Positions 32,641-60,243 of a stretch of DNA of 64,000 bases are shown piece by piece; the first letter of the stretch is position 1; every line of letters begins with the position of its first letter. The position numbers were made by a program, and so were the translations under genes. Location of the stretch: NCBI GenBank assembly GCA_903946925.1, contig CAJAXK010000259.1, forward strand, positions 4,286 through 68,285. Reading direction: 5' to 3'. A model generated the notes under the pieces. That model saw nothing but the letters and a program-made list of their open reading frames with translations. It was not told the DNA's origin and did no database searches. Source of the DNA: an uncultured Bacteroidales bacterium. GTDB lineage: Bacteria; Bacteroidota; Bacteroidia; Bacteroidales; UBA4417.

Positions 32641-32769
32641 AGCAAACCTAGTCTGAAAAAAATATCAATTAATGTTATTATATTCGAGATATGTTTTTTC
32701 AGATTGGGAAATTCATTCAAATACAGGTTATTGTATTTCCCTCTTCGTTCTTTTAAAATCACAAATTTT

Positions 32770-34248
32770 ATGAAATCTATTTCACTTTTTGGCTTGGCCT
32801 TTATCTTATGTTTTCAATTGTTTGCCCAACAAGCAGTTACTTTGCACCCTTCCGATAGCTTAACGCTTACGGTAACTTTCAACAACCCACCTACAAGTGT
32901 TAGCGTAGAAAAAGCAGCACTGCGGTACAACAAGGATTTTGCCTATAGTTTTATCCTCGACGATGGGCTTATTGATGCCTACACGGCTGCGTTCCCTTTG
33001 CTCAACGGCGGGCTTGTGGTGGGTAACAACACTATATATCCTGGATATTTTTATAGCGATGGCTGCGGTAATGCAATCCCTTTTTCGGCTGGATTGTCAT
33101 GGTATTCGGTTAATGCAGCCGGAAACGACCTGCATGTTAATACACCGAGCTATGTGACCTGGGATCAGCTCAAAACCATGTACCAAGCCGGATGGACAGT
33201 GTTAAACCACAGCTACTCGCACATAGCAAACGATACTTCAATAAATTATGTGTATCAGATTAACCAAAATACTGCTTACGTAAAAACAAAATCAGGTATT
33301 GACCTAAGCCATTTTGTGCCACCAGCCGGGGATCAAAACTACGTGGCTCCTGCTTTCGCCAATGGAATGTTGAGCGTTACAGGCAACAATAGTTCGTATA
33401 ACGGTTTCCCCGATGGGTACAGGATCGACCAACAGGTTGATTTGACCAATTTTAAACTATTCAAAATGTTGATTAGTGATGCCAATCAGAATATCGGCAA
33501 CATCATGCAGAAAATTGATACCGTTGCTGCAAGAAGCGTTAACGGCAAGCATTATTGGTGGAATGATTTTACCCACCATGTTGGGTTTACTTCTTCGGGT
33601 GCAAGCCTGCTTTTCCCTTTATTCCAGTTTTATATGGAGAATATTGCTTTACAATACGGCATTAATGGCTCCGACAATATTTGGATGGCTCCAAACCAGT
33701 ATGTTATGGAATACATAAACGTGCGGGATAAAAGTATTTTGAGTTACTCGCTTTCGGGGGATGAACTAAAAATAAAAATAAATTATTCAAATGTGCCTGA
33801 CAATATGCGGGTAAATGCGTTAACTCTTGTTGTACAGTCTGATCAGGATTTTAATTCGGTTGATGCCGATGGTTTGCAAAGCCTCACTTACAAAGGAACT
33901 GGCGACAATAAACTTATCAATTTGCAATGGGGCGATATTACTACCGGCATTAAAGAAGTTGAAAAAGGCGAAGGCCCAACCCCTGACAATATCCGTATCC
34001 ATCCAAACCCGTTCATTGATAAATTCTATGTTGATTTCGATGAGGCAAAACCAGGAAATTTTTGTTTTGAACTACACGATATAACAGGGAAAAAAGTTTT
34101 CGACAAATCCGTAAACCTACCTGAAGGCAAGTCAGCCATCGAATTCGATTTACACGGAACCGACCTTCAACCGGGCATTTACATCCTGAAAACAATTAGC
34201 GGCGGTAAAGAACTCACCTCACAGAAAGTAATAAAGGGGACCGAATAA
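32770..34248 (+). CDS. T9SS cargo: polysaccharide deacetylase (CE4/NodB-like), short paralogue of the preceding gene
   Basis: ATG 32770 gives signal 'MKSISLFGLAFILCFQLFAQQ'. 'FAYSFILDDG' and 'NHSYSH' are present. CTD 'IRIHPNPFIDKFYVDF'. Collinear with the C-terminal half of 29584..32640. Confidence 0.85.
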   Translation: MKSISLFGLAFILCFQLFAQQAVTLHPSDSLTLTVTFNNPPTSVSVEKAALRYNKDFAYSFILDDGLIDAYTAAFPLLNGGLVVGNNTIYPGYFYSDGCGNAIPFSAGLSWYSVNAAGNDLHVNTPSYVTWDQLKTMYQAGWTVLNHSYSHIANDTSINYVYQINQNTAYVKTKSGIDLSHFVPPAGDQNYVAPAFANGMLSVTGNNSSYNGFPDGYRIDQQVDLTNFKLFKMLISDANQNIGNIMQKIDTVAARSVNGKHYWWNDFTHHVGFTSSGASLLFPLFQFYMENIALQYGINGSDNIWMAPNQYVMEYINVRDKSILSYSLSGDELKIKINYSNVPDNMRVNALTLVVQSDQDFNSVDADGLQSLTYKGTGDNKLINLQWGDITTGIKEVEKGEGPTPDNIRIHPNPFIDKFYVDFDEAKPGNFCFELHDITGKKVFDKSVNLPEGKSAIEFDLHGTDLQPGIYILKTISGGKELTSQKVIKGTE

Positions 34249-37908: not shown

Positions 37909-38949
37909 TTATTCGATAATTTTCCAATAGCCTGTTTTATCGCTTCCGATGCGTTCGATTATCCCCATTTTTTTTAATTCTTGAATATGCCTTTTTATGG
38001 TAGCCGTCGAATATGCTGTTTTGTCGGCAAGTTTACTATAATTTGCTCTTGGATTTAGTTTTAAATGTTGCATGATGCTTCTTTTTACAAGGTCATTTAC
38101 AGGGTCATTTTTAGTTTTTACAGGGTCATTTACAGGTTTAACAAACTGAACATGCATTTCCCGGTTTTGCAAGATATGGTTTTCGCCAAGCAATAAGTTT
38201 TCGAAAAAACGAAGTAAAAATTCATTGGAAGCGTGAATATTCTTCGTGTGATTTTTGTAATTGGCTCTTACCAAAGCATTTCGAAAATACCACGAATGCT
38301 CCGCAAACAAATTGTTGTTTACGTTAAAGCCAAATGTACGCATATATTTTATTAAAAAAATGGCTGTTGTCCGTGTGTTGCCTTCACCAAAAATGTGAAT
38401 TTGCCAGAGGTAGGAAATAAAATGTGCTATATGTTCAATAACTTCTTGCTGACTTAATCCTTTAAAGCTAAACTTTTTTTCTTGTTCAAAATCGTATTCC
38501 AATGTGGCTTTCAAGCTCTCGGCACTTCCGTATAAAACCGTTTCGCCATTAAGCACCCACTCTTGTTTTGTGATGTTGTAATTACGGATTTTGCCTGCAA
38601 ATTTGTAAATGCCTTTAAATAACCTGCGATGAATAGCAATGTATTCAGCCGGTGAAAACGTAAATGTTTGTTCACTCAAAATTTCTGTCATTCTTGCCGA
38701 AACTTTATCTGCTTCTTCGGTGCGGTCTTCGTTTGTTTGGGTTGGGTGCTGTATGTAATAAGTGTCAATGCGCTGTTTTACTTCGTCAATGGTAATATCG
38801 CCATCAATGTTTTGTTTGGCAGTAGCAATGAGATAGTCAGACGGTTTTAGCCCATCAACTTGTTGCAAGCCAATAGCCGTTTTCCAAACCCTTGCTTTTT
38901 CCGCTTTGTTTGGCTCACCCTGCCGCAAATATTCTTCAAAATTATCCAT
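37909..38949 (-). CDS. Fic/Fido-domain protein with N-terminal VbhA-like segment and C-terminal winged-HTH
   Basis: 346 aa. Fic motif region 'HIFGEGNTRTTA'. N-terminal 'AIGLQQVDGLKPSDYL...GDITIDEV'. C-terminal 'STATIKRHIQELKKMGIIERIGSDKTGYWKI'. Confidence 0.88.
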   Translation of the reverse strand: MDNFEEYLRQGEPNKAEKARVWKTAIGLQQVDGLKPSDYLIATAKQNIDGDITIDEVKQRIDTYYIQHPTQTNEDRTEEADKVSARMTEILSEQTFTFSPAEYIAIHRRLFKGIYKFAGKIRNYNITKQEWVLNGETVLYGSAESLKATLEYDFEQEKKFSFKGLSQQEVIEHIAHFISYLWQIHIFGEGNTRTTAIFLIKYMRTFGFNVNNNLFAEHSWYFRNALVRANYKNHTKNIHASNEFLLRFFENLLLGENHILQNREMHVQFVKPVNDPVKTKNDPVNDLVKRSIMQHLKLNPRANYSKLADKTAYSTATIKRHIQELKKMGIIERIGSDKTGYWKIIE

Positions 38950-39248: not shown

Positions 39249-39279
39249 TAACCATTGTGTAAGGTTAAACTATGTGGTT

Positions 39280-40521
39280 ATGAATGAATATTTGACACTT
39301 TCGGAAGCTTCTGAACTTATTGGGAAAAGTAAAGAAACTTTAAGACGTTGGGATCGGGAAGGCAGACTTTCGGCTGTTCGCGAACCAATAAGTAATTACC
39401 GTGTCTATAATAGGGCGGAAGTCCAAACATTATTCAACGATTTTCTGACAAAAGAAACCAAAGATACTACCTCTAATTACGTAAAACCAGAAAACGATTA
39501 CAATGTTTTAGAGTTATTTGCAGGTGCTGGCGGTTTGGCTGTCGGAATGGAGAAGGCAGGTCTCAAGTGTGTTGCATTGAATGATGTAGATAAATGGGCT
39601 TGTGAAACATTGCGCAAAAACCGGCCAAACTGGAAAATTTTAGAAGGGGATATAAAGAATTTTGATTTTTCAGAATACCATAATAAGGTTGATGTTGTTG
39701 CTGGTGGTTTTCCGTGTCAAGCGTTTAGTTATGCGGGCAAAAAATTGGGGTTAGCCGATGCAAGGGGAACACTGTTTTATGAATTTGCAAGAGCTATTAA
39801 AGAAGTAAATCCTCTTATATGTATTGGCGAAAATGTTCGGGGTTTGTTAAGCCATGAAAATGGAAGAACATTGCAAGGCATGATTTCAATTTTAGATGAG
39901 ATTGGATATAATGTTGTTCCATTCCAAGTCCTAAAAGCTATAAATTATAGAGTTCCGCAAAAAAGGGAACGTTTAATTTTAGTTGGCATTCGGAAGGATA
40001 TTAATTTAAAATACGAATATCCTAAGCCACATAACAAAATATATACATTAAAGGATGCCTTAAAAAAGGGGGATTTATTCGACAATAATGTTCCAAAGTC
40101 CAATGGTGCCAAGTATCCCAAAAGCAAAACAGTTGTATTGGATTTAGTGCCGCCCAAAGGGTACTGGCGTGATTTGCCTATAGAAATTCAAAAACAATTT
40201 ATGGGCGGAAGCTTTTATCTCGGTGGCGGGAAAACAGGCATGGCTCGAAGAATTGGTTGGGACGAACCTTGTTTAACACTTACTTGTAGCCCAGCTCAAA
40301 AGCAAACCGAACGTTGCCATCCTGACGAAACCCGCCCATTTACTGTCCGTGAATATGCCAGAATTCAAACTTTTCCTGATGATTGGAAATTTGAAGGTTC
40401 AATGGCACAGCAATATAAACAAATAGGGAATGCTGTACCTGTTAATTTGGGAACGGAAGTTGGCTATTCTATTGTAAAATTCTTGAACCAATATTATCTG
40501 AAAGGCCAAAAATTAAAATAA
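39280..40521 (+). CDS. DNA (cytosine-5)-methyltransferase with N-terminal MerR/excisionase-type HTH
   Basis: Motif I 'FAGAGG', IV 'GGFPCQAFS', VI 'ENV', VIII 'QKRERL', X 'GNAVP'. N-terminal 'LTLSEASELIGKSKETLRRWDREGRL'. Confidence 0.92.
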   Translation: MNEYLTLSEASELIGKSKETLRRWDREGRLSAVREPISNYRVYNRAEVQTLFNDFLTKETKDTTSNYVKPENDYNVLELFAGAGGLAVGMEKAGLKCVALNDVDKWACETLRKNRPNWKILEGDIKNFDFSEYHNKVDVVAGGFPCQAFSYAGKKLGLADARGTLFYEFARAIKEVNPLICIGENVRGLLSHENGRTLQGMISILDEIGYNVVPFQVLKAINYRVPQKRERLILVGIRKDINLKYEYPKPHNKIYTLKDALKKGDLFDNNVPKSNGAKYPKSKTVVLDLVPPKGYWRDLPIEIQKQFMGGSFYLGGGKTGMARRIGWDEPCLTLTCSPAQKQTERCHPDETRPFTVREYARIQTFPDDWKFEGSMAQQYKQIGNAVPVNLGTEVGYSIVKFLNQYYLKGQKLK

Positions 40522-41229
40522 CTATTGGTATTTTGCTTTAATTTCTTTTGCTAAAGTTTGTATTGATTGTTCAACAACTTTGCTAGCGTCAACTTCAAGT
40601 GCAACTTCACCAATGGCATCAATTAACTCATAATAAAAGTCATCTTTACCTGTAATCCTATGCCAAAAACTTTTTCCTATAATTACTGGAAAGGTATTTC
40701 CAATTTTTCTATAATGTGAACTAAGTTCAGTTTCTTCTCCATAAACTACACCAACAATCATATCATTGATACCAACATTGAGATTATTCGTTCTAGCAAG
40801 AGATCTAACTCCGTTAAAATGATTAATTATGGTTGTAACATCATCATGATTTATTGTATTTGGGCCTGCTTTTAACTGACAATATTTTTTACGCCCATCT
40901 AATGCATCAATAAATTCAATATCAATTCCTTGAGTTGTGGATCCTAAGCCTTGAAATAAAGAACTTATTAGACTTTGAATCTTCATCCCAAATGAAGTGT
41001 TTATAGAGGAACCCAAAATTCTTGGAAGTACCAATGCTCTAGCAATACTTTCAGGGTCGTCATTGCCAGTCAGAAAATTTGCCAAATACTTGAAGAGAAA
41101 TGGGTTTACATTGTATTCAGACAACTTACTTGCTCGTTTGCAAGCACCTTCTATATGACTTTGAACAATTTCATTTCTAAAAAATGTCTTCGCATTTTCA
41201 AGTATCTGTTTTCTTTGATTATTGTCCAT
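40522..41229 (-). CDS. Putative type II restriction endonuclease (cognate partner of the m5C methyltransferase)
   Basis: 235 aa, very AT-rich, convergent, with its stop abutting the methyltransferase stop. Candidate PD-(D/E)xK core 'GIDIEFIDALDGRKKYCQLKAGPNTIN'. From memory it resembles Eco47II-family enzymes; this is unverified. Confidence 0.6.
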   Translation of the reverse strand: MDNNQRKQILENAKTFFRNEIVQSHIEGACKRASKLSEYNVNPFLFKYLANFLTGNDDPESIARALVLPRILGSSINTSFGMKIQSLISSLFQGLGSTTQGIDIEFIDALDGRKKYCQLKAGPNTINHDDVTTIINHFNGVRSLARTNNLNVGINDMIVGVVYGEETELSSHYRKIGNTFPVIIGKSFWHRITGKDDFYYELIDAIGEVALEVDASKVVEQSIQTLAKEIKAKYQ

Positions 41230-46275: not shown

Positions 46276-46428
46276 ATGTGGGATGTTGGATGTGGGATGT
46301 TGGATGTGGGATGTTGGATGTTTAATGTGGGATGGCGGATTTGGCCTTTGACCTTTGCCTTTTGCCTTTTGACCTTTAACTTTTGACCTTTGACCTTTGC
46401 CTTTTGACCTTTGCCTTTTGCCTTTTTC
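46276..46428. repeat. Compound tandem array: ATGTGGGATGTTGG x3-4, then CCTTTGAC/CTTTTGCC-type 8-9-mers
   Basis: Read directly. Starts 4 nt after the stop at 46272. Confidence 0.9.
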
Positions 46429-46607
46429 CCTTTCCTTTTTCGCTTAAATAAAAAACCCCATTTGCAATATTGGATTAAATCTATCGTTTTGACTACTACC
46501 ATGTAAACAAGCAATAAATTGATTTTTACAATGCATTAACATATAGCCACAAAACGAACTGCTATTTTAATTGTTTACTTTGGGATAAATATTTTAAACT
46601 GGAACAC

Positions 46608-49600
46608 TTGTCAAAAAATAGATTCACTTCTTTCGGTATTTATCTTTTCCTAATGCTTTTGCCGGTGGTTTCACAATCGCAGGCACTGCAAATAAACAGG
46701 ACGATTTCGTGGGCAAAACACTTGTCCAAAATAGATACTGCCACCAATGCCATCACTTTCGATGGTGCTTATTGTGCTGACCGTCAAAGTCTTCCGCTTT
46801 GGAACGAAACTTTTTATGACAATGGCCTTTCGGAAAATGTTACAATCGATAATTGCACTTTTCTGGTTTTATCGGATGCCGAGAAATTGGTTTTCAGTGC
46901 CAATAAAATCGATTTGCCTCCTTCAATCGTTCCGGTTATAACTAAAGTTACAAGCAGGAAACAAACAGGGATACTAGTCGAAATTATGCCATTTATTCAT
47001 GATTTGGCAACAAACCAAATCCTGAAACTTTCATCCTTCACCCTTAATTTTGCCGAAAGCGACAAGCCTGAAGCAATTACCTCAAAAACTTACGCTTCCT
47101 CCTCGGTTCTTTCGCAGGGAAGCTGGTATAAACTTGCCGTTACCCAAACCGGCATATATCGCCTCGATTACAACGATCTTGTTGCAATGGGAATCAATCC
47201 GGCTACTATCAATTCTGGCAAAATTGGCATATTTGGCCGGGGTGGCACTATGCTTCCCGAACCAAACAACCAGCCACGTGCCGATGATTTACCTGAAATT
47301 ACCATAGAGATTACTGGTCAGGGCGATGGATCTTTCGATCAGGGCGACCATATTGTTTTTTATGCACAAGGCCCAACTTCTTGGCAGTACAACAACATGA
47401 AACAAATGTGGGAGCATACCCCTCATTTGTACGCCGATACCATCAGCTATTTCCTTACACCTGACCAAGGTACAGGCAAACGCATTTTAGCAAAAGCAAG
47501 TTCTGCCGAAACCGAAACAGATATTGTTGATTCTTACGACTTTTATGCAACGTTTGATGAGAACAACTTCAATCTTGTCAAATCAGGCCGGCAGTGGTTC
47601 TCACAGGTTTTTGATGTAATAACCAGCAGGTCGTATTCTTTCGATATTCCAGCATTAGCAAGCGGAAACGAGGTTAAAGTCCGTTCGGTTACTGCTGCCA
47701 AATCCATCAATGCCAGTTCGTTCGAGTTAAGCGTTGGAAGCCAAGCTTGGACTGTTTCACATTCCCCTATTTCAACTTCCGATGGCAGTGCGGTAGCAAC
47801 AGGTGCTGTTTACTACAAAACCTTACAATCGGTTTCGCTTCCGCTAAAGGTTGACGTAAGGTACATAAAAACTTCAACTTCTGCAGCCGGGTATCTCGAC
47901 TTTTTAGACATAAATGCACGCTGCGCATTAAAATTTTCATCCGGGCAACTGCATTTTCGCGATAGCCGTTCATTCGGTAGCGGACGGACAGCATTGTACC
48001 GTGTAACTTCTGCTGCCGGTAAAGCTAAGATATGGGATGTAACCAACCCTTTGACGATTTTCGCGATTAATGCAAATACCGATGGCAACGATTTGGTTTT
48101 CAAGCTTCCGGCCGATACTATCCGGCAGTTTGTCGCTTACGATGAAAGCCAGTTTTTAAAGCCGGTTTTTGTCCATAAAATTCAAAACCAAAACCTGCAT
48201 GCAACTACCGGGGTGGACATGGTAATTATTGCACCTCAGCTATTTATGGCACAAGCTGTTAGGCTGGCAACCTTTCATGCTAACGCTACCAACCTGAATG
48301 TGCTGGTTTTGGACCCAACCACTATTTACAACGAATTCGCTTCAGGAACAGTTGATATTACTGCCATACGCGATTTTATGAAAATGCTTTACGACAGGGC
48401 GGCAACCGATAAAATGCCGAAATATCTTTTGCTTTTTGGCGATGGCTCTTACGATTATAAAGACAAGATAGCTTCAAATACCAATTTTATCCCTACTTGG
48501 CAATCGGTGGAATCGTTCGACCCCATACACTCCATAGCTACAGATGATTACTTCGGTATCCTCGACGACAACGAAGGGAAATCATATTCCGATGTTATTG
48601 ATATGGGCATTGGCCGGCTGCCAGTGGCAAATGCGCTTGAAGCAGAGCAAGCAGTTGATAAAATAATACATTATTCAGTTGCCTCGCCCGAAAATATGTC
48701 TGATTGGCGTGATATGGTAACCTTTGTTGCCGACGACGAAGACGACGAGCATGTTGAACATTCGGAAATACTGGCAAACGATTTGAACACCAACTACCCC
48801 GAAATGAACATTGATAAGGTTTATCTCGATTCGTATATCCAGGTTGCTTCGTCGAGTGGAAACCGCTATCCCGATGTGAACAAAGCGATAACGCAACGGG
48901 TGGAAAAAGGTAGCCTCATCCTAAATTATATTGGTCATGGCGGCGAAACAGGCTGGGCGCACGAGCAAGTGTTAACGGTTAACGAAATTAACAATTGGTC
49001 CAATTTCGACAATATGCCTGTTTTTGTTACTGCCACCTGCGAATTTAGCCGCTTCGATGATCCTGGCCGCAGGGCTGCCGGCGAGTATGTGCTTACAAAT
49101 CCTAAGGGTGGAGGAATAGCATTGTTTACCACAACCAGGCCAACCTTTGGTACGCCAAATTTTGAGCTGAACAAAAAATTCTTCCAGTATGCAATGAGCA
49201 AACCCGATGGCCAAAGATTGCGTATGGGCGATATAATCATGAATTCCAAACGCGACAAAGGATCCAACGAAAATGGTCGTAAATATGTTCTTTTGGGCGA
49301 TCCAGCCTTGCAAATTGCCTTCCCTGCTTTAAATGTTGTAACCACCAAGTTTAACGGCCACGCACCGGGCAGTAATGCCGATACCCTAAAAGCCTATATG
49401 GAAGTGAGCATCGAAGGGATTATTGCCGATGCTAATGGAAATATTGTTTCTGATTTTAATGGTACAATTTACCCAACGGTTTTCGACAAAGCTGTAACAC
49501 AGAAAACCCTTGCCAACGATGGAGGTACAATTTTTTCGTACTTATTGCGTAAAAACCTGCTGTATAAGGGAACGGTGAAAGTTGAAAACGGACATTTTAG

Positions 49601-50405
49601 TTTTACGTTTATTGTACCTAAAGATATTGCATACCAATATGATACAGGTAAAATTAGCTATTATGCCACCAATGGTGTTAGCGATGCAGTTGGGTTTTAT
49701 ACAAATGTAATTGTCGGCGGTTCTACCGATGTTGAGGTTATTGACACCCAAGGCCCTGATATTAGTTTGTATATGAACAACAAACTTTTTCAGGATGGGG
49801 GAATTACCGACCAGAATGCTAAATTGCTTGCGTTGGTAAGCGACGAAAACGGTATAAATACAGTGGGAAATGGAATTGGGCACGATATTACGGCTGTACT
49901 CGATGGCAACACTTCGGAACCTTATATCCTGAACGATTTTTACCAATCGGATATCAATACTTTCAAAAGTGGGTATATCTGGTTCCCATTTTCTATGCTG
50001 GCAACTGGCGAACACACAATCAATTTGAAAGTTTGGGATATTTTCAATAATTCTTCCGAAGCCGAAATACATTTTACGGTTGTGCCATCGGGCGATTTTG
50101 TGATTTCAAAAACCTACAGCTACCCTAACCCATTCAGAGAATACACCGATATTGTGTTTGAACACAATCAGCAAGGTGTTGATTTCGATGTGCGGGCCGA
50201 AATTTATTCCCTTTCGGGGCAGTTGGTTAGGGTAATTGAACAAACTTCGGCACAATCAGGCTCAGTAAGCACACCAATCCGTTGGGATGGCTTGCGCGAA
50301 AATGGAAGCAGGATGGGCAATGGCTTGTATATTTACAATCTTATTGTTCATGCTTCCAATGGGTTGGATTCACAAGTTTCTGGCAGGCTGGTTTTGCAGA
50401 AATAA
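46608..50405 (+). CDS. porU: PorU-like T9SS C-terminal signal peptidase (C25 family), paralogue 1 (most divergent)
   Basis: 1265 aa, TTG start, signal peptide. 'GSWYKLAVTQTGIYRLDYNDLVAMG', 'NYIGHGGETGWAHE' (His) and 'VFVTATCEFSRFDDP' (Cys). CTD 'YSYPNPFREYTDIVFEHN'. Confidence 0.85.
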   Translation: MSKNRFTSFGIYLFLMLLPVVSQSQALQINRTISWAKHLSKIDTATNAITFDGAYCADRQSLPLWNETFYDNGLSENVTIDNCTFLVLSDAEKLVFSANKIDLPPSIVPVITKVTSRKQTGILVEIMPFIHDLATNQILKLSSFTLNFAESDKPEAITSKTYASSSVLSQGSWYKLAVTQTGIYRLDYNDLVAMGINPATINSGKIGIFGRGGTMLPEPNNQPRADDLPEITIEITGQGDGSFDQGDHIVFYAQGPTSWQYNNMKQMWEHTPHLYADTISYFLTPDQGTGKRILAKASSAETETDIVDSYDFYATFDENNFNLVKSGRQWFSQVFDVITSRSYSFDIPALASGNEVKVRSVTAAKSINASSFELSVGSQAWTVSHSPISTSDGSAVATGAVYYKTLQSVSLPLKVDVRYIKTSTSAAGYLDFLDINARCALKFSSGQLHFRDSRSFGSGRTALYRVTSAAGKAKIWDVTNPLTIFAINANTDGNDLVFKLPADTIRQFVAYDESQFLKPVFVHKIQNQNLHATTGVDMVIIAPQLFMAQAVRLATFHANATNLNVLVLDPTTIYNEFASGTVDITAIRDFMKMLYDRAATDKMPKYLLLFGDGSYDYKDKIASNTNFIPTWQSVESFDPIHSIATDDYFGILDDNEGKSYSDVIDMGIGRLPVANALEAEQAVDKIIHYSVASPENMSDWRDMVTFVADDEDDEHVEHSEILANDLNTNYPEMNIDKVYLDSYIQVASSSGNRYPDVNKAITQRVEKGSLILNYIGHGGETGWAHEQVLTVNEINNWSNFDNMPVFVTATCEFSRFDDPGRRAAGEYVLTNPKGGGIALFTTTRPTFGTPNFELNKKFFQYAMSKPDGQRLRMGDIIMNSKRDKGSNENGRKYVLLGDPALQIAFPALNVVTTKFNGHAPGSNADTLKAYMEVSIEGIIADANGNIVSDFNGTIYPTVFDKAVTQKTLANDGGTIFSYLLRKNLLYKGTVKVENGHFSFTFIVPKDIAYQYDTGKISYYATNGVSDAVGFYTNVIVGGSTDVEVIDTQGPDISLYMNNKLFQDGGITDQNAKLLALVSDENGINTVGNGIGHDITAVLDGNTSEPYILNDFYQSDINTFKSGYIWFPFSMLATGEHTINLKVWDIFNNSSEAEIHFTVVPSGDFVISKTYSYPNPFREYTDIVFEHNQQGVDFDVRAEIYSLSGQLVRVIEQTSAQSGSVSTPIRWDGLRENGSRMGNGLYIYNLIVHASNGLDSQVSGRLVLQK

Positions 50406-50410
50406 ACAAC

Positions 50411-50575
50411 TTTAAAAGTGAGTCCACTCCGAAAAGTTTTTTTCGCCACAAAGGCACTAAGTTTCACGAAGAATATAGTGCTGATTAACAATGCTCTGTG
50501 TTCCTCTGTGTTCTCCGTGCCTCCGTGGTTTCCTTTTTTTTTAGACTTTTCGGAGAGGACTTAAAAGTATTGCTA
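50411..50575 (+). repeat. MITE-like hairpin repeat, copy B
   Basis: '...GAGTCCACTCCGAAAAGTTTTTTTCGCCACAAAGGCACTAAG...CTGATTAACAATGCTCTGTGTTCCTCTGTGTTCTCCGTGCCTCCGTGGTTTCCTTTTTTTTTAGACTTTTCGGAGAGGACTT'. Inverted arms; collinear with copy A. Confidence 0.65.
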
Positions 50576-50620
50576 TCACTTCATAAAAAACAACATCAAT
50601 TTAAACCGTCAGACCAAAGC

Positions 50621-53600
50621 ATGAATACATACCAGAAACTTTTTGTTACAGGGCTTTTTCTTGTTATAGCCAACACCTTGCTTTTAGGGCAGGGCATACA
50701 GAAAAAAGTAACCTTGAATTGGAAAGGCATTCAAGCCATTGAAGGGATCAACTACGAAGTTGTGGATGCTTTGGTGGCAGAGGACTTAAACAACAATGCA
50801 ACAAGGAATTACACGCCCGAATATTTCGAGAAATTCAAGCTGCCAAAAGGTGTAAATAATTGCGAAATCCTAATTACCAATACGGTTTTCGAACCATTGA
50901 ATAGCGAGGATTTGGACAAGCTCAGCTTCCCTTTGCTCCCTACCGAAACACTTTCGCCAGTTGTGGAAACTGCTACCGAAAGGGGAATACAGATGGCCAT
51001 GCTATCGCTTGTACCAGTTGTAATGAACCCGGAAGGCGGAATTATGCGCTTAAAATCATTCCAGATTGATGTGGTTTATAATTACTCAAGCTTTAAAAAT
51101 GCAGTTGCCCAAAATGCTTCTTTTGCACCACATTCAGTACTTGCACAAGGAAACTGGTATAAAATCCAACTCAATAAAACCGGGATTTATAAAATTACTT
51201 ACGCCGAAATGCAGGCAATGGGTGTTAACATGTCAACAATTACCCCAAATTCCATTAGGCTTTTTGGGAATGGCGGTGGCATGTTGCCCGAGTCGAATAG
51301 CGTTTTCCGTAACGACGACCTTACTGAAAACCCAATTAAAGTAGTTAGTGCCAATGCCAATGTGTTTGCATCTGGTGATTACATTTTGTTTTATGGTACA
51401 GCTCCCCATAAAACCGTTTATAACAAAACTGCTAAGAAATTTGAACATTCAACCAATATTTATTCCGACAATACTTTTTATTACTTGAATTTTGAAGGCA
51501 CTACAGGTTTGAGGATTGAGGATATGCAGCAATCAACTCTTACGCCTAATTATACTTGTACCAGCTTTTTTGATGGTGTTTTTTATGAAAAGGACAAAAT
51601 AAATTTTATCAATTCAGGCAAAGATTGGTTTGGCGAACGCATGGATGCTACAGCCAATTCATTTGAACTGCCTGAGTTTAATTTTCCAAATCTAAAAACC
51701 GGTAATCAAGCCTGGATACGATACCATGTTGCAGCAAGGGCAACCAGCAATACTACTTTTACGGTTTCTATCAATGGTACCGAGGTTTCAAAACCCTCAT
51801 GTTCGGCCTTTGCAAATTACAATTATGCCTCCGACCGTACTGAAACAAAGAGTTTTATCCCCAACGATGAAAAAATAAAAGTTTCTTTCCAATATAACGG
51901 AGGGGGAACATCCATTGGCTGGCTCGATTGGGTTGAACTGAACGTGGTGCGGGCATTGAAATTTACCAGCGGCCAAATGGCTTTTGCCGATCCAGTTTCT
52001 GTTGCCAAGGATAGGGTTACAGAATTTCAATTGCAATCCTCCTCGCCCAATGTGGTTGTTTGGGAAGTAACTGATCCATTAAAAGTAAAGCGTGTGCTTA
52101 CTGCGTTCCAAACCGATGTAAGCAAGTTTGTTTTAAATACCGATTCGCTGCGCCAATTTGTTGCCTGGGACAATACCTCGTTCCTTTCAACAACATTTAC
52201 CGAAAAAGTGATAAACCAGGATTTGCATGGCATTGAATCTACTGATTTTTTGATTGTTACTCACAAAGATTATCTTGATCAGGCAGGCCGCCTTGCCGAT
52301 CACCACCGAATAGCTGATGGTATGAAGGTTACTGTTGTTACTAACGAGCAAGTTTACAACGAGTTCTCATCTGGCTCGCCCGATATTTTGGCTATACGCG
52401 ATATTTGCCGCATGTTATATAATCGTCCGGCGGCTGGAAACAAGCTCCAATATTTGTTGCTTTTTGGCGATGGTTCATTCGATTTTAAAGACCGGGTTCC
52501 TGAAAACACAAACCGTGTTCTTGCATTTCAAACCAAAGAATCACTCAACACGGTTTATTCTTATGCAAGCGATGATTTTTTTGGGTTACTTGATGCCAAC
52601 GAAGGAAATGATGGAATTGGTTTGATAGATATTGGAATCGGGCGTTTCCCTGTAAACACTGCCGCACAAGCCAAAACCGCGGTTGACAAATGCCTTTTCT
52701 ATGCCAGTAACGGAATAGCATCCTTGGGCGATTGGCGCAATAAACTTTGCTTTGTTGCCGACGATGGAAACGGCAACACCCATTTTTCGCAGGTCGAGAA
52801 ACAGATTTGTCCCTTGGTGGAGGAAATTGCCCCTGTTTATAACGTAAATAAAGTTTATCTCGATGCGTTCAAGCAAGTTTCAACACCAACAGGGCAGCGT
52901 TGCCCCGATGCAAATACCGCTATAAAAACCAATGTCGAAAACGGGGTTTTGGTAATGAACTATACCGGGCATGGTGGCGAAACAGGTTGGGCCGACGAAG
53001 GGATACTTACCATCAGCGAAATAGATGCATGGACAAACTATGCGAACATGCCGGTTTTTATGACAGCAACTTGTGAGTTCAGCCGTTTTGATGATCCTGC
53101 GCGGGTATCGGCTGGCGAACATGTTTTCCTTAACCCTGTTGGTGGCGGCATAGCCCTGTTTACCACCACACGTTTGGCAAACGCAGGCACAAATATTGGG
53201 CTAACCCTTTATTTTTACGATACGCTTTTTGCAAAATACAATGGCGAATATCCTCGTTTTGGTGATGTTATAGCTCATGCGAAAAACAAAATGGGAGGCA
53301 ATGATGCCGCATTGATACGCAATTTCGTACTGCTTGGCGACCCTGCTTTGCGTTTGGCTTATCCAAAACATAATGTAATTACTACCGAGATAAATGGCCG
53401 CAAAACCGGTTCCGGGATGGATACCATTTCGGCCATGGAAGCAGTAGAAATTAAAGGGATAATTGCTGATCAAAATGGCAATAAGCTTACCGGTTTTAAT
53501 GGCAAAATGGATGTAAAAGTCTTTGATAAAGAACGCACTTTAATGACCTTAGGTTCCGAACCCGGCGACTATCCCGACGATTACACCCTTCAGGATAATT

Positions 53601-54445
53601 ACATCTATCAGGGCAGAGCAACTGTTGCCAATGGCGATTTTACCATCAATTTTATAGTTCCACGTGATATAGATTACAGTTATGGTTTTGGAAAAATCTC
53701 TTACTATGCCCACGATAGCCTTGTTGATGCCAATGGCTATTGCAAGGAATTGATAATTGGTGGTTCCGGCGATGAAAGCACTGATAATGAAGGCCCACAG
53801 ATAGCATTATTTTTAGATGGACTTAATTTTAAAGATGGTGATATCACTGGCGATACGCCTTTGCTGATTGCACAGTTGAGCGACGAAAGCGGGATTAATA
53901 CAGTGAGCAACGGAATTGGGCATGATATAGTGGCAACTCTGGATGGCGATAATTCTTCATCCGTTGTGCTGAATAGTTTTTACAACGCCGAACTCGACAG
54001 TTACAGCACAGGGGTGGTTTTATACAACCTGCCGGAGCTTACCGAAGGGGAGCATACATTAACACTGAAAGCCTGGGATGTTTTCAATAATTCGTCTTCG
54101 GCAACAATAAATTTCAAGGTGTCGAAAAATATACAAATCACCATTACCAGCATAAACGCAAGCCCAAACCCTTTCACTGAGGAAGTAAACGTTGCTTTCG
54201 ACGTCAACCTATCCAATTCGCCAATCGAAGCCCATCTCGAAATTTTTAACATCAACGGTTCTCTTGTTAGCACAACCGAAACTAATTTAATGGTAGCACA
54301 AGGCTATAAAGCCGGTGTGTTGACGTGGGATGGACGTGGCAATTCGGGGGCGCCAATCCCGCCAGGGGTTTACATTGTTAGTGTAAGGGCAAGCAACGGC
54401 AATTCCGAAACGGTAAAAGCTGTTAAGGTGGTGAAACTCAAATAG
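50621..54445 (+). CDS. porU: PorU-like T9SS C-terminal signal peptidase (C25 family), paralogue 2
   Basis: Start moved to ATG 50621 ('MNTYQKLFVTGLFLVIANTLLLGQG') because the upstream codons read through repeat copy B. 'NYTGHGGETGWADE' and 'VFMTATCEFSRFDDP'. CTD 'ASPNPFTEEVNVAFDVN'. Confidence 0.85.
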   Translation: MNTYQKLFVTGLFLVIANTLLLGQGIQKKVTLNWKGIQAIEGINYEVVDALVAEDLNNNATRNYTPEYFEKFKLPKGVNNCEILITNTVFEPLNSEDLDKLSFPLLPTETLSPVVETATERGIQMAMLSLVPVVMNPEGGIMRLKSFQIDVVYNYSSFKNAVAQNASFAPHSVLAQGNWYKIQLNKTGIYKITYAEMQAMGVNMSTITPNSIRLFGNGGGMLPESNSVFRNDDLTENPIKVVSANANVFASGDYILFYGTAPHKTVYNKTAKKFEHSTNIYSDNTFYYLNFEGTTGLRIEDMQQSTLTPNYTCTSFFDGVFYEKDKINFINSGKDWFGERMDATANSFELPEFNFPNLKTGNQAWIRYHVAARATSNTTFTVSINGTEVSKPSCSAFANYNYASDRTETKSFIPNDEKIKVSFQYNGGGTSIGWLDWVELNVVRALKFTSGQMAFADPVSVAKDRVTEFQLQSSSPNVVVWEVTDPLKVKRVLTAFQTDVSKFVLNTDSLRQFVAWDNTSFLSTTFTEKVINQDLHGIESTDFLIVTHKDYLDQAGRLADHHRIADGMKVTVVTNEQVYNEFSSGSPDILAIRDICRMLYNRPAAGNKLQYLLLFGDGSFDFKDRVPENTNRVLAFQTKESLNTVYSYASDDFFGLLDANEGNDGIGLIDIGIGRFPVNTAAQAKTAVDKCLFYASNGIASLGDWRNKLCFVADDGNGNTHFSQVEKQICPLVEEIAPVYNVNKVYLDAFKQVSTPTGQRCPDANTAIKTNVENGVLVMNYTGHGGETGWADEGILTISEIDAWTNYANMPVFMTATCEFSRFDDPARVSAGEHVFLNPVGGGIALFTTTRLANAGTNIGLTLYFYDTLFAKYNGEYPRFGDVIAHAKNKMGGNDAALIRNFVLLGDPALRLAYPKHNVITTEINGRKTGSGMDTISAMEAVEIKGIIADQNGNKLTGFNGKMDVKVFDKERTLMTLGSEPGDYPDDYTLQDNYIYQGRATVANGDFTINFIVPRDIDYSYGFGKISYYAHDSLVDANGYCKELIIGGSGDESTDNEGPQIALFLDGLNFKDGDITGDTPLLIAQLSDESGINTVSNGIGHDIVATLDGDNSSSVVLNSFYNAELDSYSTGVVLYNLPELTEGEHTLTLKAWDVFNNSSSATINFKVSKNIQITITSINASPNPFTEEVNVAFDVNLSNSPIEAHLEIFNINGSLVSTTETNLMVAQGYKAGVLTWDGRGNSGAPIPPGVYIVSVRASNGNSETVKAVKVVKLK

Positions 54446-54641
54446 CGAACTATTGCAAGATTAGGGAAAGTGGTTGTCTGATAATGAGTTTCCGATACTT
54501 GACATATTTTATTTTGCAATAAACTTTGGATTGAAAACCTGTTTATCCCAGGTTCTCTAATCCGCATTCTCGATTTGAAGATATACGCGAAAGCAATAAT
54601 TCAAGAAATTTCAGTTATACGATTGGCAATAACATTCAATC

Positions 54642-57600
54642 ATGCAAAAAGGAATAAAGTGTTTTTTGACTTTAGTTACTCTAATAGCTTTACAATTATT
54701 GGCTACGGCCCAGGTAAGTCAGCAAAAAGTTGTTATTGACTGGCTGGGAATCAAAACCGTAAGCGGCTTCGACAATGAACCCATAAATGTCCTATTTGCC
54801 CCGGGCTTGGCGAATGTGGCTTCAAAAAACTACAGCCCCGAATATTTCAAAAAAACCAAACTCCCTGCTGGTGTTGCCCTCGACACTGTTTTGATTACCC
54901 ATGTCGTTTATGAAACCCTAAGCCCGGAACAACAAAAATCGCTCACTTTTAAGCTATTGCCTTGCGATACGCTTTCCCCGAAAATTGAAACCGGGACCGA
55001 ACGCGGCATTAGCATGTTGATGATTACATTAAACCCATTGGTTTCAAGTGCTGATGGCAGCATAATGCGATTAAAATCCTTTCAGATTGATATTGTTTTT
55101 CGCCCTGATACAACAACAAACCAAACAAAAAAGGCTGCTGCTTATGCCTCACATTCTGTCCTTGCACAAGGCGGTTGGTATAAAATACAGTTGAACAAAA
55201 CGGGTATTTATAAAATTACCTATTCCGACATTCAGGCAATGGGAGTGAATATGGCGGAGGTGAAACCCGAAAACATAAGGTTGTTTGGAAATGGTGGCGG
55301 TTTGTTGCCCGAAGCAAACATCACATTCCGCCACGACGACCTCACCGAAAACGCTATAAAAGTAGTTTCGGCCAATGCCAACGTTTTCGCGCCGGGCGAT
55401 TATTTGCTTTTTTACGGCACTTCGCCCAACAAGATTGAATACAACAAAACGACAAAGAAATTTGAGCATATTCAGAATATTTATTCGGATTATACTTATT
55501 ACTACCTGAATTTTGATGGTGGCACAGGTTTGCGGATCGAAGATCAATACCAATCCATACTGCTCCCAACGTATGTTTCCACAAGTTTTGTCGAAGGCGT
55601 TTTTTACGAAAAGGATCTTTCGAACCTGATAATTTCGGGCAAAAATTGGGTTGGCGAACGTTTCGATGCAAACAACAATGTGTTTCAACTTCCGCGTTTT
55701 GAATTCCAGAACATAAATCCCGGCAAACAAGCCTGGATCCGTTACCGCTTATTGGCAAGGGCAAACTTATCCACAACCTTTGATGTAAAAGTAAATGGGA
55801 AGCTGGTTTCATCCCCTTCAATAAGTGCTATTGGCAATTACAATTTTGCCAGCGAACGCATCGAAACCAAAAGCTTTATCCCTGAAACAGGGATAATTGA
55901 TGTGGCTTTTGAATATAAAGGCACAGGTGTAACCATCGGCTGGCTCGATTGGGTTGAACTAAACATTACCCACCAACTTAAATTTACCGGTGGGCAAATG
56001 GCTTTTGCGGATCCCATTTCGGTTGCAAATAGCAGGGTTACCGAATTCCAGTTGCAGGCTTCTTCGGCCAATGTTTCTATTTGGGAAGTAACAAACCCTG
56101 TTAAGGTTTCCAAAATAGTGGCCGATTTGCAAGGGGATGTAAGCAAATTTGTGTTGCCAACCGATTCGTTAAGGCAGTTTGTGGCTTGGGACAACTCAGC
56201 TTTTTTAACAGCTACTTTTGCCGGTAAAATTGCAAACCAGGATTTGCATGGCATTGCTGCCGCAGATTTTTTAATCGTAACCAACCAGGATTTTTTGGAA
56301 CAAGCCAACCGTTTGGCCAATCACCACAGGGTTTTTGATGGTATGAAAGTTGAAGTGGTTACAAACGAACAGGTTTACAACGAATTTTCTTCCGGTTCGC
56401 CCGATGTGGCGGCCATACGCGATTTTGCAAGGATGCTTTACCAAAAACCCGATGCAAAAGACAAACTCCGCTATCTGCTGCTTTTTGGTGATGGGTCGTA
56501 TGATTATAAAGATAAGATTGCCAATAACACCAATAAGGTATTGGCTTTTGAAACCAAAGAATCGGAGCATACTGTTTATTCGTGCGCCTGCGATGATTTT
56601 TTCGGTCAGTTGGATGTCAACGAAGGCTATGACGCATCGGGATTGATAGATATTGGTATTGGCAGGTTCCCGGTAAATACGCCCGAACAGGCAAAAGCAG
56701 TCGTGGATAAGTGCATACATTACGCAACCAACAGTGTGAACTCATTGGGCGATTGGCGAAATAAAATATGCCTCACAGCCGACGATGGCGATGGGAATTA
56801 TCATTTTGGCCAGGCCGAACACGATTTGGCACCATTTATTGAAAAGATTGACCTTGTTTATAACCTGAATAAAATTTATGTTGATTCGTTTAAGCAAACA
56901 GCCACTGCCACAGGTGAGCGTTGCCCCGATGCCAATACAGCAATTAATGCAAATGTTGAAAATGGTGTGCTTATAATGAACTATACAGGGCATGGTGGCG
57001 AAACGGGTTGGGCAAACGAAGGCATACTTTCGGTGAAAGAAATTGAAGCTTGGACTAACTTTAACAATATGCCCTTGTTCATGACCGCGACCTGTGAGTT
57101 TAGCCGTTTCGACGACCCAAACCGGATTTCGGCCGGCGAACATGTGCTTTTAAACCCATTTGGTGGCGGGGTAGCACTTTTTACAACCACACGCTTGGCA
57201 AGTTCGGGTCCCAATATCAGGTTGAACCTTTATTTCTACGATTCTATTTTAAGCCATATTAATGGCGAATACCCACGTTTTGGCGATGTAATAGCATATT
57301 CCAAAAACCAAATTTCGGGCGACGAGAAACTATATATCCGAAACTTTGTGCTGCTTGGCGACCCTGCTTTGCAACTGGCATATCCCAAAAACCAGGTTAT
57401 CACCACGCAAATCAACGGACGGGATTTAAAGCAAGGAACGGACACCATTTCGGCTATGGAAGCTGTTGAAATCAAAGGCATAATTGCCGATCAGCAAAGC
57501 ACAAAACTTAGTTGGTTCAATGGGATAATAGATGTAAAAGTTTTTGATAAAGAACGTACCTTAATGACCTTAGGCTTCGATCCCGACGACTGGCCCGAAG

Positions 57601-58469
57601 CTTACACCGTGCAGGATAATTATATCTATCAAGGCAAAGCCACAGTTACAAACGGCGATTTTACCGTAAATTTTATTGTTCCCCGCGATATTGATTACAG
57701 CTATGGCTTTGGAAAAATTTCGTACTATGCCCACGATAGCCTCATAGATGCAAATGGTTTTTGCAAGCAATTAGTTATAGGAGGTTCAGGAATTGAGAGC
57801 ACTGATACCGAAGGCCCACAGATAGCTTTGTTTTTTGATGACATTAATTTTATTGATGGCGGTATTACTGGTGATTCTCCGTTGTTGATTGCCCAATTGA
57901 GCGACGTAAGTGGGATTAATACGGTAAGCAACGGCATTGGGCACGATATTGTAGCAACTTTGGACGGCGACAATTCTTCGTCAATAGTGCTTAATAGTTA
58001 TTACAATGCAAAAACCGATAGCTACACTTCGGGTGTGGTGCTTTACAAATTGGCTGAACTCACCGAGGGCGAGCATACACTTTCGCTCAAAGCCTGGGAC
58101 GTGTTCAATAATTCGTCCTCGTCAACCATCAGGTTCAAGGTTTCCAAAAACCGGCAAATCACCATCACAAAAGTAAACGTTAGCCCGAATCCTTTCAACG
58201 AAAGTATAAAAGTAACTTTTGAAATTAATCTTGCCGATTCGCCCGTCGAAGCCTACCTGGAAGTGTTTAATGTCAATGGTTCATTGGTAAGCACTACCAA
58301 TATGGAGTCGTTTCTGGCTCAAGGGTTTAAAGTAGGTGGGCTTACCTGGGACGGGCAATCGGATTCAGGGGCAACTGTACCACCTGGGGTTTATATCATT
58401 AGCATTAGGGCCAGTTCTGGAAATTCCAAAACAGTAAAAGCCGTAAAAGTGATAAAAACAAAACTGTAA
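54642..58469 (+). CDS. porU: PorU-like T9SS C-terminal signal peptidase (C25 family), paralogue 3 (adjacent to porV)
   Basis: 1275 aa with a signal peptide. 'NYTGHGGETGWANE' and 'LFMTATCEFSRFDDP'. CTD 'VSPNPFNESIKVTFEIN'. Highly similar to paralogue 2. Confidence 0.88.
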   Translation: MQKGIKCFLTLVTLIALQLLATAQVSQQKVVIDWLGIKTVSGFDNEPINVLFAPGLANVASKNYSPEYFKKTKLPAGVALDTVLITHVVYETLSPEQQKSLTFKLLPCDTLSPKIETGTERGISMLMITLNPLVSSADGSIMRLKSFQIDIVFRPDTTTNQTKKAAAYASHSVLAQGGWYKIQLNKTGIYKITYSDIQAMGVNMAEVKPENIRLFGNGGGLLPEANITFRHDDLTENAIKVVSANANVFAPGDYLLFYGTSPNKIEYNKTTKKFEHIQNIYSDYTYYYLNFDGGTGLRIEDQYQSILLPTYVSTSFVEGVFYEKDLSNLIISGKNWVGERFDANNNVFQLPRFEFQNINPGKQAWIRYRLLARANLSTTFDVKVNGKLVSSPSISAIGNYNFASERIETKSFIPETGIIDVAFEYKGTGVTIGWLDWVELNITHQLKFTGGQMAFADPISVANSRVTEFQLQASSANVSIWEVTNPVKVSKIVADLQGDVSKFVLPTDSLRQFVAWDNSAFLTATFAGKIANQDLHGIAAADFLIVTNQDFLEQANRLANHHRVFDGMKVEVVTNEQVYNEFSSGSPDVAAIRDFARMLYQKPDAKDKLRYLLLFGDGSYDYKDKIANNTNKVLAFETKESEHTVYSCACDDFFGQLDVNEGYDASGLIDIGIGRFPVNTPEQAKAVVDKCIHYATNSVNSLGDWRNKICLTADDGDGNYHFGQAEHDLAPFIEKIDLVYNLNKIYVDSFKQTATATGERCPDANTAINANVENGVLIMNYTGHGGETGWANEGILSVKEIEAWTNFNNMPLFMTATCEFSRFDDPNRISAGEHVLLNPFGGGVALFTTTRLASSGPNIRLNLYFYDSILSHINGEYPRFGDVIAYSKNQISGDEKLYIRNFVLLGDPALQLAYPKNQVITTQINGRDLKQGTDTISAMEAVEIKGIIADQQSTKLSWFNGIIDVKVFDKERTLMTLGFDPDDWPEAYTVQDNYIYQGKATVTNGDFTVNFIVPRDIDYSYGFGKISYYAHDSLIDANGFCKQLVIGGSGIESTDTEGPQIALFFDDINFIDGGITGDSPLLIAQLSDVSGINTVSNGIGHDIVATLDGDNSSSIVLNSYYNAKTDSYTSGVVLYKLAELTEGEHTLSLKAWDVFNNSSSSTIRFKVSKNRQITITKVNVSPNPFNESIKVTFEINLADSPVEAYLEVFNVNGSLVSTTNMESFLAQGFKVGGLTWDGQSDSGATVPPGVYIISIRASSGNSKTVKAVKVIKTKL

Positions 58470-58696
58470 ACAAGTTGTTGTTAGGTAGTGTTAGACGTTC
58501 TAGCTGTTATACAACTGCAACTTTCTTCACATTCAATGTTTTACTATGTTTATGAAATAGTTCAACAAAATCAGATTTAGCTTGAGTGCTTGCATGTAGA
58601 AAAAACAAAATCCAATGCAATAACATTTCTTTATGGTCGTTAATACAACCAATGGATAATGATAATAAATTTCGCGACTTTATTTTTAAACCACTT

Positions 58697-59887
58697 ATGA
58701 CACATAGTAAACTTACGCTTTTTACCTTTCTTGTACTGATTGCCTTCAGTATTACAGCAAAAGCCCAGCTAAAATCAGTAGCAGAAGATCCTAAATCAAA
58801 TTATATTGGCCAGTTTAACCCTATCACGACGGCTGTCCCATTTTTGATGATTTCGCCTGATGCCCGTGGAGGCTCAATGGGCGATGCTGGCGTTGCATCC
58901 GAACCAGATGCTTTTTCGATGCACTACAACCCTGCAAAATTTGCTTTCATCAATAAAGATATGGGTGTTGGGATTTCGTACAGCCCCTGGCTAAAAGGGC
59001 TTACCAACGATATTAACCTTGCTTATGTCAGTGGGTTTAAGAGGTTAAACAAGGATCAGGTAATTGCCATGTCGTTGCGTTATTTTAACCTTGGTGATAT
59101 AAATTTTACCGACATAAACGGTTCTCCGATTGGCGATTACAAACCTAACGAATTTGCACTTGATGGCACATACTCGCGTATGCTGACTTCAAATTTGTCA
59201 ATGGCAGTGGCTGCAAGATATATACATTCCAACCTTACACAAGGGCAGGATGTTGGTGGGCAGGCAACCAAACCTGGAAATTCAGTTGCAGCGGATGTTG
59301 CATTGTTTCAACGTTTTCCAGTTGAATTTGATAAAATTGAAGGTAACTTTTCGTGGGGTGTAAATATTTCCAATATCGGTACAAAAATGTCGTACAGCGA
59401 TGATAATACCAATAAGGATTTTATCCCTACCAATCTGAAAATTGGCCCTTCGCTCACCCTTAACCTCGACGATTTCAATCAGATGTCGTTTATGGTTGAT
59501 TTTAATAAATTGCTTGTGCCTACACAAAGTATTGATAGTAACGGGGTTATTATTGCAGGTATGGACCCGAATGTTTCTGTTCCTGTTGGTATGGTTCATT
59601 CTTTTTACGATGCACCGGGCGGGTTTAGCGAAGAAATGGCCGAAATCAGCATTTCAACGGGTGTCGAATATTGGTATGCCCAGCAGTTCGCACTTCGCGG
59701 AGGCTTTTTCTATGAAGATAAAAATAAAGGAAACAGGAAATTTTTTACGTTGGGCGCAGGGTTCAGGTACAATATCTTAGGGATTGATTTCTCGTACCTT
59801 ATCCCAATCGAAACACAAAACCCACTCGAACATACTTTGCGTTTTTCGCTGCTGATTAATTTTGATGCCCCATCGGTGGCTAAATAA
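58697..59887 (+). CDS. porV: T9SS outer-membrane shuttle protein PorV (LptO)
   Basis: ATG 58697 gives signal 'MTHSKLTLFTFLVLIAFSITAKAQ'. 'SPDARGGSMGDAGVAS' and a beta-barrel pattern. Conserved porU-porV synteny. Confidence 0.88.
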   Translation: MTHSKLTLFTFLVLIAFSITAKAQLKSVAEDPKSNYIGQFNPITTAVPFLMISPDARGGSMGDAGVASEPDAFSMHYNPAKFAFINKDMGVGISYSPWLKGLTNDINLAYVSGFKRLNKDQVIAMSLRYFNLGDINFTDINGSPIGDYKPNEFALDGTYSRMLTSNLSMAVAARYIHSNLTQGQDVGGQATKPGNSVAADVALFQRFPVEFDKIEGNFSWGVNISNIGTKMSYSDDNTNKDFIPTNLKIGPSLTLNLDDFNQMSFMVDFNKLLVPTQSIDSNGVIIAGMDPNVSVPVGMVHSFYDAPGGFSEEMAEISISTGVEYWYAQQFALRGGFFYEDKNKGNRKFFTLGAGFRYNILGIDFSYLIPIETQNPLEHTLRFSLLINFDAPSVAK

Positions 59888-59907: not shown

Positions 59908-59940
59908 AAAAAAGGCTGCCTTTAATTGGCAGCCTTTTTG
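59908..59940 (+). terminator. Rho-independent terminator after porV
   Basis: 'AAAAAAGGCTGCC-TTTAATT-GGCAGCCTTTTTG'. 7-bp GC stem followed by a T-tract. Confidence 0.75.
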
Positions 59941-60243
59941 CGTTTTGAATGTTTATGTTTCAATGTCGTTTATTTAGCATTTTTCAGAAAAGAAAGAAAA
60001 AAATGTCGGATTTTGTACCCTCCCCAGCCCTCCCTAGAAAATAGGGAGGGAGTAGTTCGCAACAAAATTTTAGACATTTGAACATATGTTAAGCTATATT
60101 AGTATGTCCTCCCCCTTTTTCCAAGGGGGAGACAGAGGGGGTACAAAGTGAATTGCAGATAACATTAATGAGAACTATTAGAATGAATCCTTAACTAAAC
60201 GACATTGGTTTATGTTTTATAAACTTTCCAAATAGATGTTCCT

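Follow-up and report, generated by a model that had tools for sequence, protein, structure and literature searches.

Four successive open reading frames (ORFs) on the forward (+) strand fill positions 46608-59887 of a 64,000-nucleotide stretch of DNA from an uncultured Bacteroidales bacterium (contig CAJAXK010000259.1), referred to below as the window: three encode PorU, the T9SS (type IX secretion system) sortase, and the last encodes PorV, the outer-membrane shuttle and PorU anchor. Judging from comparisons of these sequences with those of related genomes, the window triple is an ancient pair of PorU paralogs, called A and B here, plus a younger extra B copy, and not a set of three equivalent copies.

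The first gene of the array, porU copy 1 (PorU-A; 46608..50405), starts with TTG and encodes 1265 amino acids, the codons of its catalytic dyad lying at 48936 (His777) and 49038 (Cys811). Copy 2 (PorU-B; 50624..54445) encodes 1273 residues (His783, codon 52970; Cys817, codon 53072) when read from the ATG at 50624; its frame is open from a GTG at 50498, and the ATG is the likely start, the signal-peptide-like N-terminus that follows it being aligned with that of copy 3. Copy 3 (PorU-B prime; 54642..58469) encodes 1275 residues (His784, codon 56991; Cys818, codon 57093) and is the only one to adjoin porV directly. The porV gene (58697..59887), whose frame is open from 58586 and whose likely start is the ATG at 58697 (MTHSKL), closes the array. 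An earlier note on this DNA, made from the letters alone, had described three full-length PorU-like genes upstream of porV and had listed their dyad codons; all of its Cys positions, as well as the His codons at 52970 and 56991, were correct, while the first His codon begins at 48936, 1 nt away from the place given.

The three products were compared with family models and with the structure of the Porphyromonas gingivalis enzyme. NF033707, the NCBIfam equivalog model of PorU (cut-off 420 bits), gave 1319, 1260 and 1233 bits for copies 1, 2 and 3, approximately three times its cut-off in every case, and was covered from position 1 to 1093 or 1094 of 1095. All three copies also matched two further models, one for the N-terminal part of the 'PorU long form' and Pfam Peptidase_C25 (PF01364), the latter at 355-363 bits (361 in copy 1). 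Alignment to the chain of P. gingivalis PorU in entry 6za2 yielded 531, 480 and 445 bits, respectively (E values of 1e-132 to 1e-158), and extended over nearly the whole chain, residues ~24-1152 (24-1147 for copy 3) pairing with query residues ~161-1267. By score, copy 1 is the closest of the three to P. gingivalis PorU. These matches bear out the description of three complete PorU proteins. The identity of PorV is equally clear, with 493.5 bits for NF033710 (cut-off 250) and 221.6 bits for the Pfam PorV family; the PorQ and PorV2 models remained far under their cut-offs, and PorV2 was rejected at 32.6 bits versus 325.

The motifs that had been quoted from the sequence are present in all three copies: QG(S/N/G)WYK...TGIY(R/K) in the N-terminal region, NY(I/T)GHGGETGWA around the His of the C25 domain, and TATCEFSRFDDP around the Cys. 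In the alignment, P. gingivalis PorU has GHGGPAGWS opposite GHGGETGWA and TATCDF opposite TATCEF, and the His/Cys dyad is kept in 128 of the 128 PorU ORFs collected from the window and 76 related loci. No frameshift or internal stop was found in any of the three genes. The C-terminal domain (CTD) that directs proteins to the T9SS is less sharply defined. The TIGR04183 model (cut-off 23 bits) gave 24.5, 25.3 and 20.4 bits for copies 1, 2 and 3, values that are at or slightly under the cut-off; Pfam Por_Secre_tail stayed under its gathering score in all three, and FlgD_ig-like matches span the same stretch. The proposal that each copy carries its own type A CTD is thus weak, TIGR04183 just passing its cut-off in copies 1 and 2 and falling short of it in copy 3. 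The PorU model itself extends across the C-terminus of all three. Signal peptides were assessed by eye only.

We then asked how porU is arranged in relatives, using a scan of GTDB representatives (one genome per species) that returned 396 relatives, of which the best 80, corresponding to 76 loci, were kept. Within these 80 the closest relatives, at 62-88% identity, are uncultured Bacteroidales or Lentimicrobiaceae known from metagenome-assembled genomes (MAGs), as are all of the closest genomes, and it is among these that the organism of the window is placed. No isolate name appears among the best 120 of 950 homologs of copy 2. A locus was considered assessable when porV was present together with at least 4 kb of upstream sequence (n = 43). 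Twenty-nine of these read porU-porU-porV, three, in addition to the window, read porU-porU-porU-porV, and 11 carry a single porU before porV. Two-copy loci bear labels that include Lentimicrobiaceae, Prolixibacteraceae and Bacteroidales, and those with one copy carry the labels Chitinophagales, Flavobacteriales, Cytophagaceae or Microscillaceae. When incomplete contigs are included, the triple array is found in L002, L004, L006, L014, L061 and the sister MAG (L001 plus L059), that is, in at least six other species-level genomes. A tandem porU pair is the normal state in this lineage, and the triple is a recurrent elaboration of it. The rarity that the earlier note had implied is not upheld by these counts: multi-copy arrays are common in this lineage, as it had foreseen they might prove to be, while the prior description that it had also envisaged was not found in the literature searched.

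Several further features of these loci deserve mention. The Lentimicrobiaceae bin CAYQTT01 holds, in addition to the full triple with porV of L014, a porU-porU pair without porV (L008, 13754-17608) that is followed by a CusA-like efflux operon; this bin is either a mixture of two populations or a single genome with two arrays and five porU genes in all. An extra, unlinked B-type porU is likewise present in each of the bins JBBSDC01 (L004 plus L046) and JBBQGD01 (L013 plus L058). Short paralogs, of ~1140-1170 rather than ~1280 aa (lengths of ORFs measured from stop to stop), occur as second copies in L016, L028, L038, L044, L048 and L054 and as first copies in L021, L039, L041 and L049. The short form is the B copy in Prolixibacteraceae-like loci and the A copy in some Lentimicrobiaceae-like loci, and such proteins probably do not have the 'long form' N-terminal domain. 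P0110, a widely seen protein from the copy 2 homolog search, sits in a single-copy porU-porV locus; proteins of this kind are already named PorU by annotation pipelines.

The relationships between the copies were analyzed in a neighbour-joining tree of the 128 full-length PorU ORFs, in which bootstrap values for A and B clades were obtained separately for five taxon groups. All copies in first position, window copy 1 included, fall into one cluster (A), which adjoins the single-copy sequences, and all copies in second or third position, including window copies 2 and 3, fall into the other (B). As exact global clades, all-A and all-B were recovered in 9-16% of replicates; a clean global split, present in the tree topology, is consequently not claimed, and the result is retained per group. 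In the Lentimicrobiaceae-like core, clades A and B reached 92% and 100%, in two other groups both reached 100%, and in a fourth the values were 67% and 71%; the fifth and smallest group (three loci) resolved neither clade (39% and 0%). A clade uniting A and B of the same group, which would be the signature of lineage-specific duplication, was recovered in just 0-3% of replicates for each of the five. These values indicate that the A/B duplication predates at least the four resolved groups. On this phylogenetic evidence, it is older than the divergence between the Lentimicrobiaceae-like, the Prolixibacteraceae-like and further groups labelled Bacteroidales, after which the genes have stayed in the order A-B-porV.

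Window copy 3 clusters with window copy 2 and the orthologs from the sister MAG (76% bootstrap); third copies elsewhere belong to clades of their own (85% and 99%) and share only 62-65% identity with window copy 3, so that a common origin of every third copy is unsupported. The third copy arose by later duplication of B, probably more than once within the family; alternatively, gene conversion together with fast evolution may have blurred one older event.

At the protein level, copy 1 shares 39% identity with both copy 2 and copy 3, while the latter two share 68% (70% in DNA). A recent tandem duplication was rejected on the basis of these identities (39-68%) and of the recurrence of the arrays across assemblies: by sequence divergence, the three window genes are old paralogs, not fresh duplicates. 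Ratios of nonsynonymous to synonymous substitution rates (dN/dS) were calculated against the sister lake MAG (L001/L059), the nearest genome, giving 0.070, 0.059 and 0.116 for copies 1, 2 and 3 and 0.040 for porV, and in an independent species pair, giving 0.075, 0.069 and 0.138 for the three porU genes. Both comparisons place all three porU genes under purifying selection, with constraint on copy 3 approximately twofold more relaxed (dN/dS ~2 times that of copy 2). Taken with the intact reading frames and dyads, these values confirm that no copy is a pseudogene, as had been suspected from the sequence.

The three porU genes and porV probably form a co-transcribed, single-strand unit. The spacer between the A and B genes has a median length of 24 bp across 52 loci, which is consistent with co-transcription, and neither a consensus scan nor reading of the sequence revealed a convincing terminator between the genes of the window array. 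Downstream of porV, at 59908..59946 on the forward strand, an intrinsic-terminator-like hairpin can be read from the sequence (AAAAAAGGCTGCC-TTTAATT-GGCAGCCTTTTTGCGTTTT); its stem, GGCTGCC-7 nt-GGCAGCC, is followed by TTTTT, in agreement with the terminator that had been noted at this place, and the consensus scan did not list it. Sigma-70-type promoter matches are no more frequent than in shuffled sequences, and the Bacteroidetes-type motif TAnnTTTG is absent from the + strand of the four spacers.

Two repeat features lie within or next to the array. In the A-B spacer of the window, a 17-nt inverted repeat (50421-50437 and 50545-50561; 94% complementary) encloses 107 nt. This segment is probably a small insertion that lengthens the spacer, resembling a miniature inverted-repeat transposable element or a structured RNA; no second copy of its core was found in the window or in the related loci that were fetched. 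Between the upstream hydrolase gene and porU-A, Tandem Repeats Finder detected heptamer repeats, (ATGTGGG)~8 followed by (TTTGMCY)~14, at 46276..46445, for which 19 related loci have no counterpart at the same upstream position. These repeats could be prone to slippage and thereby affect expression, or be mere simple-sequence DNA. Past the terminator, the porV-ispF intergenic region (59990-60150) contains two G/C-rich hairpin-forming stretches, CCCTCCC...GGGAGGG and CCTCCCCC...GGGGGAG.

The best-known point of comparison is P. gingivalis PorU (PG0026; 6ZA2), which acts in an attachment complex with PorV, PorZ and PorQ. It is itself a T9SS cargo that retains its CTD and is held at the surface by PorV (PMC10202324); it cuts the CTDs of cargo proteins and transfers the cargo either to anionic lipopolysaccharide (A-LPS), which PorZ supplies, or to small amines, the latter resulting in release. 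The enzyme is reported to be latent as a dimer, in which a hairpin of one monomer blocks the active site of the other (PMC10202324, citing Mizgalska 2021), and how it recognises cargo and chooses between release and attachment is stated as open in the same review. The window proteins share with it the C25 domain, the His and Cys motifs and, putatively, a CTD-like domain at the C-terminus. They differ in carrying an additional 'long form' domain of ~140 aa at the N-terminus, which the 1156-residue chain of 6ZA2 leaves uncovered in the alignments, and in number: reviews name a single PorU in P. gingivalis, whereas the window holds three paralogs, with porV in the same locus. The single-copy loci of Flavobacteriia, Chitinophagia and Cytophagia (for example the porUV operon of Chryseobacterium; L031-L033, L037, L076 and L077) show the same order of porU followed by porV, and in the tree their porU is nearer window copy 1 (type A) than type B. 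In L077 and the window alike, porV has ispF as its neighbour, though in the window ispF is on the opposite strand.

Duplication followed by specialisation has precedents in the T9SS, namely GldK/GldJ, GldN/GldO and the multiple PorP/SprF-like proteins for type B cargo (PMC10202324), yet none of them concerns the sortase. No description of multi-copy porU was found in the full-text literature searched, T9SS reviews included, a search outside which many subscription papers lie; the part of the text of a PorU phylogeny paper that was covered does not mention multiple PorU copies.

With regard to function, we favor a division of labour in which A would be the general enzyme and B and B prime would serve other cargo subsets or acceptors, and we give this reading a probability of about one half. 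The functional ideas of the earlier note, namely sortases for different cargo classes, different anchoring chemistries and heteromeric complexes, are all plausible. Since the window proteins keep every recognisable feature of PorU, the simplest mechanism is one with three active sortases. Each would be exported by the T9SS and retain its own CTD, and each would dock on a PorV molecule, by analogy with P. gingivalis PorU. PorU-A would then act as the general sortase, and B and B prime would process further sets of CTD cargo or rely on a different acceptor, for instance releasing proteins to the medium as opposed to attaching them to lipopolysaccharide. Gram-positive bacteria, in which a housekeeping class A sortase works beside specialised classes that each serve a subset of sorting signals, offer an analogy that is functional only, the fold, envelope and chemistry being unrelated.

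A number of observations weigh against this reading. At a threshold of 85%, A and B show only two fixed differences (U1 T846 versus U2 A852, and U1 K892 versus U2 N900), not enough for an argument that specificity has changed, and only two genes for type A CTD cargo are present within the 64-kb window. The spacers of the window array are unusually long, ~182-215 bp, that between A and B being the longest at 215 bp, and co-transcription rests on gene order and spacing because no promoter was identified. With bootstrap values of 9-16%, it is not proven that B arose only once for all groups. Lastly, that the paralogs differ in substrates or acceptors is a supposition.

The main alternative, which we regard as rather unlikely, is an obligate partnership of A and B within a hetero-oligomer, one of them regulating or positioning the other instead of handling cargo of its own. 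No B-type gene was seen without an A-type gene in any locus with enough upstream sequence, and the fixed gene order and the short median A-B spacer suggest coupled expression; the dimer latency described for P. gingivalis PorU (PMC10202324) is also in keeping with such a pair. However, both types have a complete catalytic apparatus in every sequence, and B has been duplicated again without a matching duplication of A.

It is improbable that the extra genes are redundant and, without specialisation, only provide a large T9SS secretome with more sortase. All copies do have the same domain layout and motifs, and hardly any fixed differences separate A from B, but dosage duplicates are usually young and similar, and an identity of 39%, a fixed order kept through family-level divergences and dN/dS values of ~0.06-0.07 are unexpected for redundant copies. 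Age, order, tight spacing and strong constraint together argue against plain redundancy.

A further possibility, that one or two of the genes have lost the sortase role and represent secreted C25 cargo, members of PorU2 or decaying genes, is largely refuted and very improbable. Copy 3 does evolve approximately twice as fast as copy 2 and does score under the TIGR04183 cut-off, but all three proteins match the PorU equivalog from end to end, no reading frame is interrupted and dN/dS is at most 0.14. PorU2 and PorV2 (NF052324 and NF052325, named 'putative' by their curators) are likewise a second PorU-related, sortase-like family; copies 1, 2 and 3 scored 181, 182 and 168 bits against the NF052324 cut-off of 450, and type B is therefore not PorU2. 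The gingipains RgpB and Kgp, which are secreted C25 cargo, belong to the same fold family, whereas the window copies have the full PorU architecture: RgpB chains matched copies 2 and 3 with only 24-37 bits over ~170 residues and copy 1 not at all at E<=0.001. The situation raised beforehand as a refutation of the three-sortase description, with a single true PorU beside gingipain-like peptidases, is thus not what the scores show.

An assembly or binning artefact in which strain variants were stitched in tandem can be considered refuted: even if the closest genomes are all metagenome-assembled and one bin, possibly mixed, has two arrays (L008 and L014, from separate contigs), protein differences of 32-61% between the copies go far beyond strain variation, and the same order is found in more than 35 independent assemblies, including the chromosome-level MAGs OY762227.1 and OY782677.1.

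The surroundings of the array contain no other T9SS machinery gene adjacent to it. On the upstream side are genes for a 5-methylcytosine (m5C) methyltransferase and an EcoO109I-like endonuclease, for an acyltransferase and a two-component pair of the LytS/LytTR type, and for a glyoxalase-family protein and a small hydrolase; ispF and a gene for an acyl-CoA synthetase lie downstream, on the opposite strand. The methyltransferase, which has an N-terminal MerR/helix-turn-helix segment (+ strand), and the convergent EcoO109I-family endonuclease (- strand) form a type II restriction-modification pair at 39274-41229. The two type A CTD cargo genes of the window encode a 1018-aa protein with Big_7 Ig-like repeats (29584-32640) and a polysaccharide-deacetylase-domain protein (32704-34248), each with ~36 bits for Por_Secre_tail. 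On the - strand, the product of 37909-38949 combines a VbhA-antitoxin-like N-terminal segment, a Fic/DOC domain and a C-terminal winged-helix domain, and may be a self-contained regulator of the Fic toxin-antitoxin type. A four-gene run on the same strand (21460-27776) comprises an unassigned 228-aa ORF, a TonB-dependent-receptor-like gene (CarboxypepD_reg plus Plug), a DUF4249 gene and an MG2-domain (alpha-2-macroglobulin-like) gene.

All T9SS models treat PorU as a single enzyme. What appears to be new here is the paralogy of PorU itself, which is absent from the literature searched; the PorU identity of such proteins was already annotated. The existence of paralogs calls for caution in counts of T9SS components per genome and in PorU trees built from one sequence per species. 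For the lineage as a whole, we put forward, tentatively and as a possibility we would not call probable, that a large and mostly uncultured branch of the Bacteroidia has long run its T9SS on two PorU enzymes that are not interchangeable, either as a heteromeric, mutually regulating pair or with release and surface anchoring split between them, and that B was duplicated again and again to follow changing cargo. If this is true, the arrays would be a natural dissection of how PorU sets the fate of its cargo. The arrays are not rare in the lineage, yet they offer a usable handle on a question acknowledged in the field: with a conserved A/B pair and an occasional third copy, differences between the paralogs could serve to map the determinants by which PorU recognises cargo and decides its fate.

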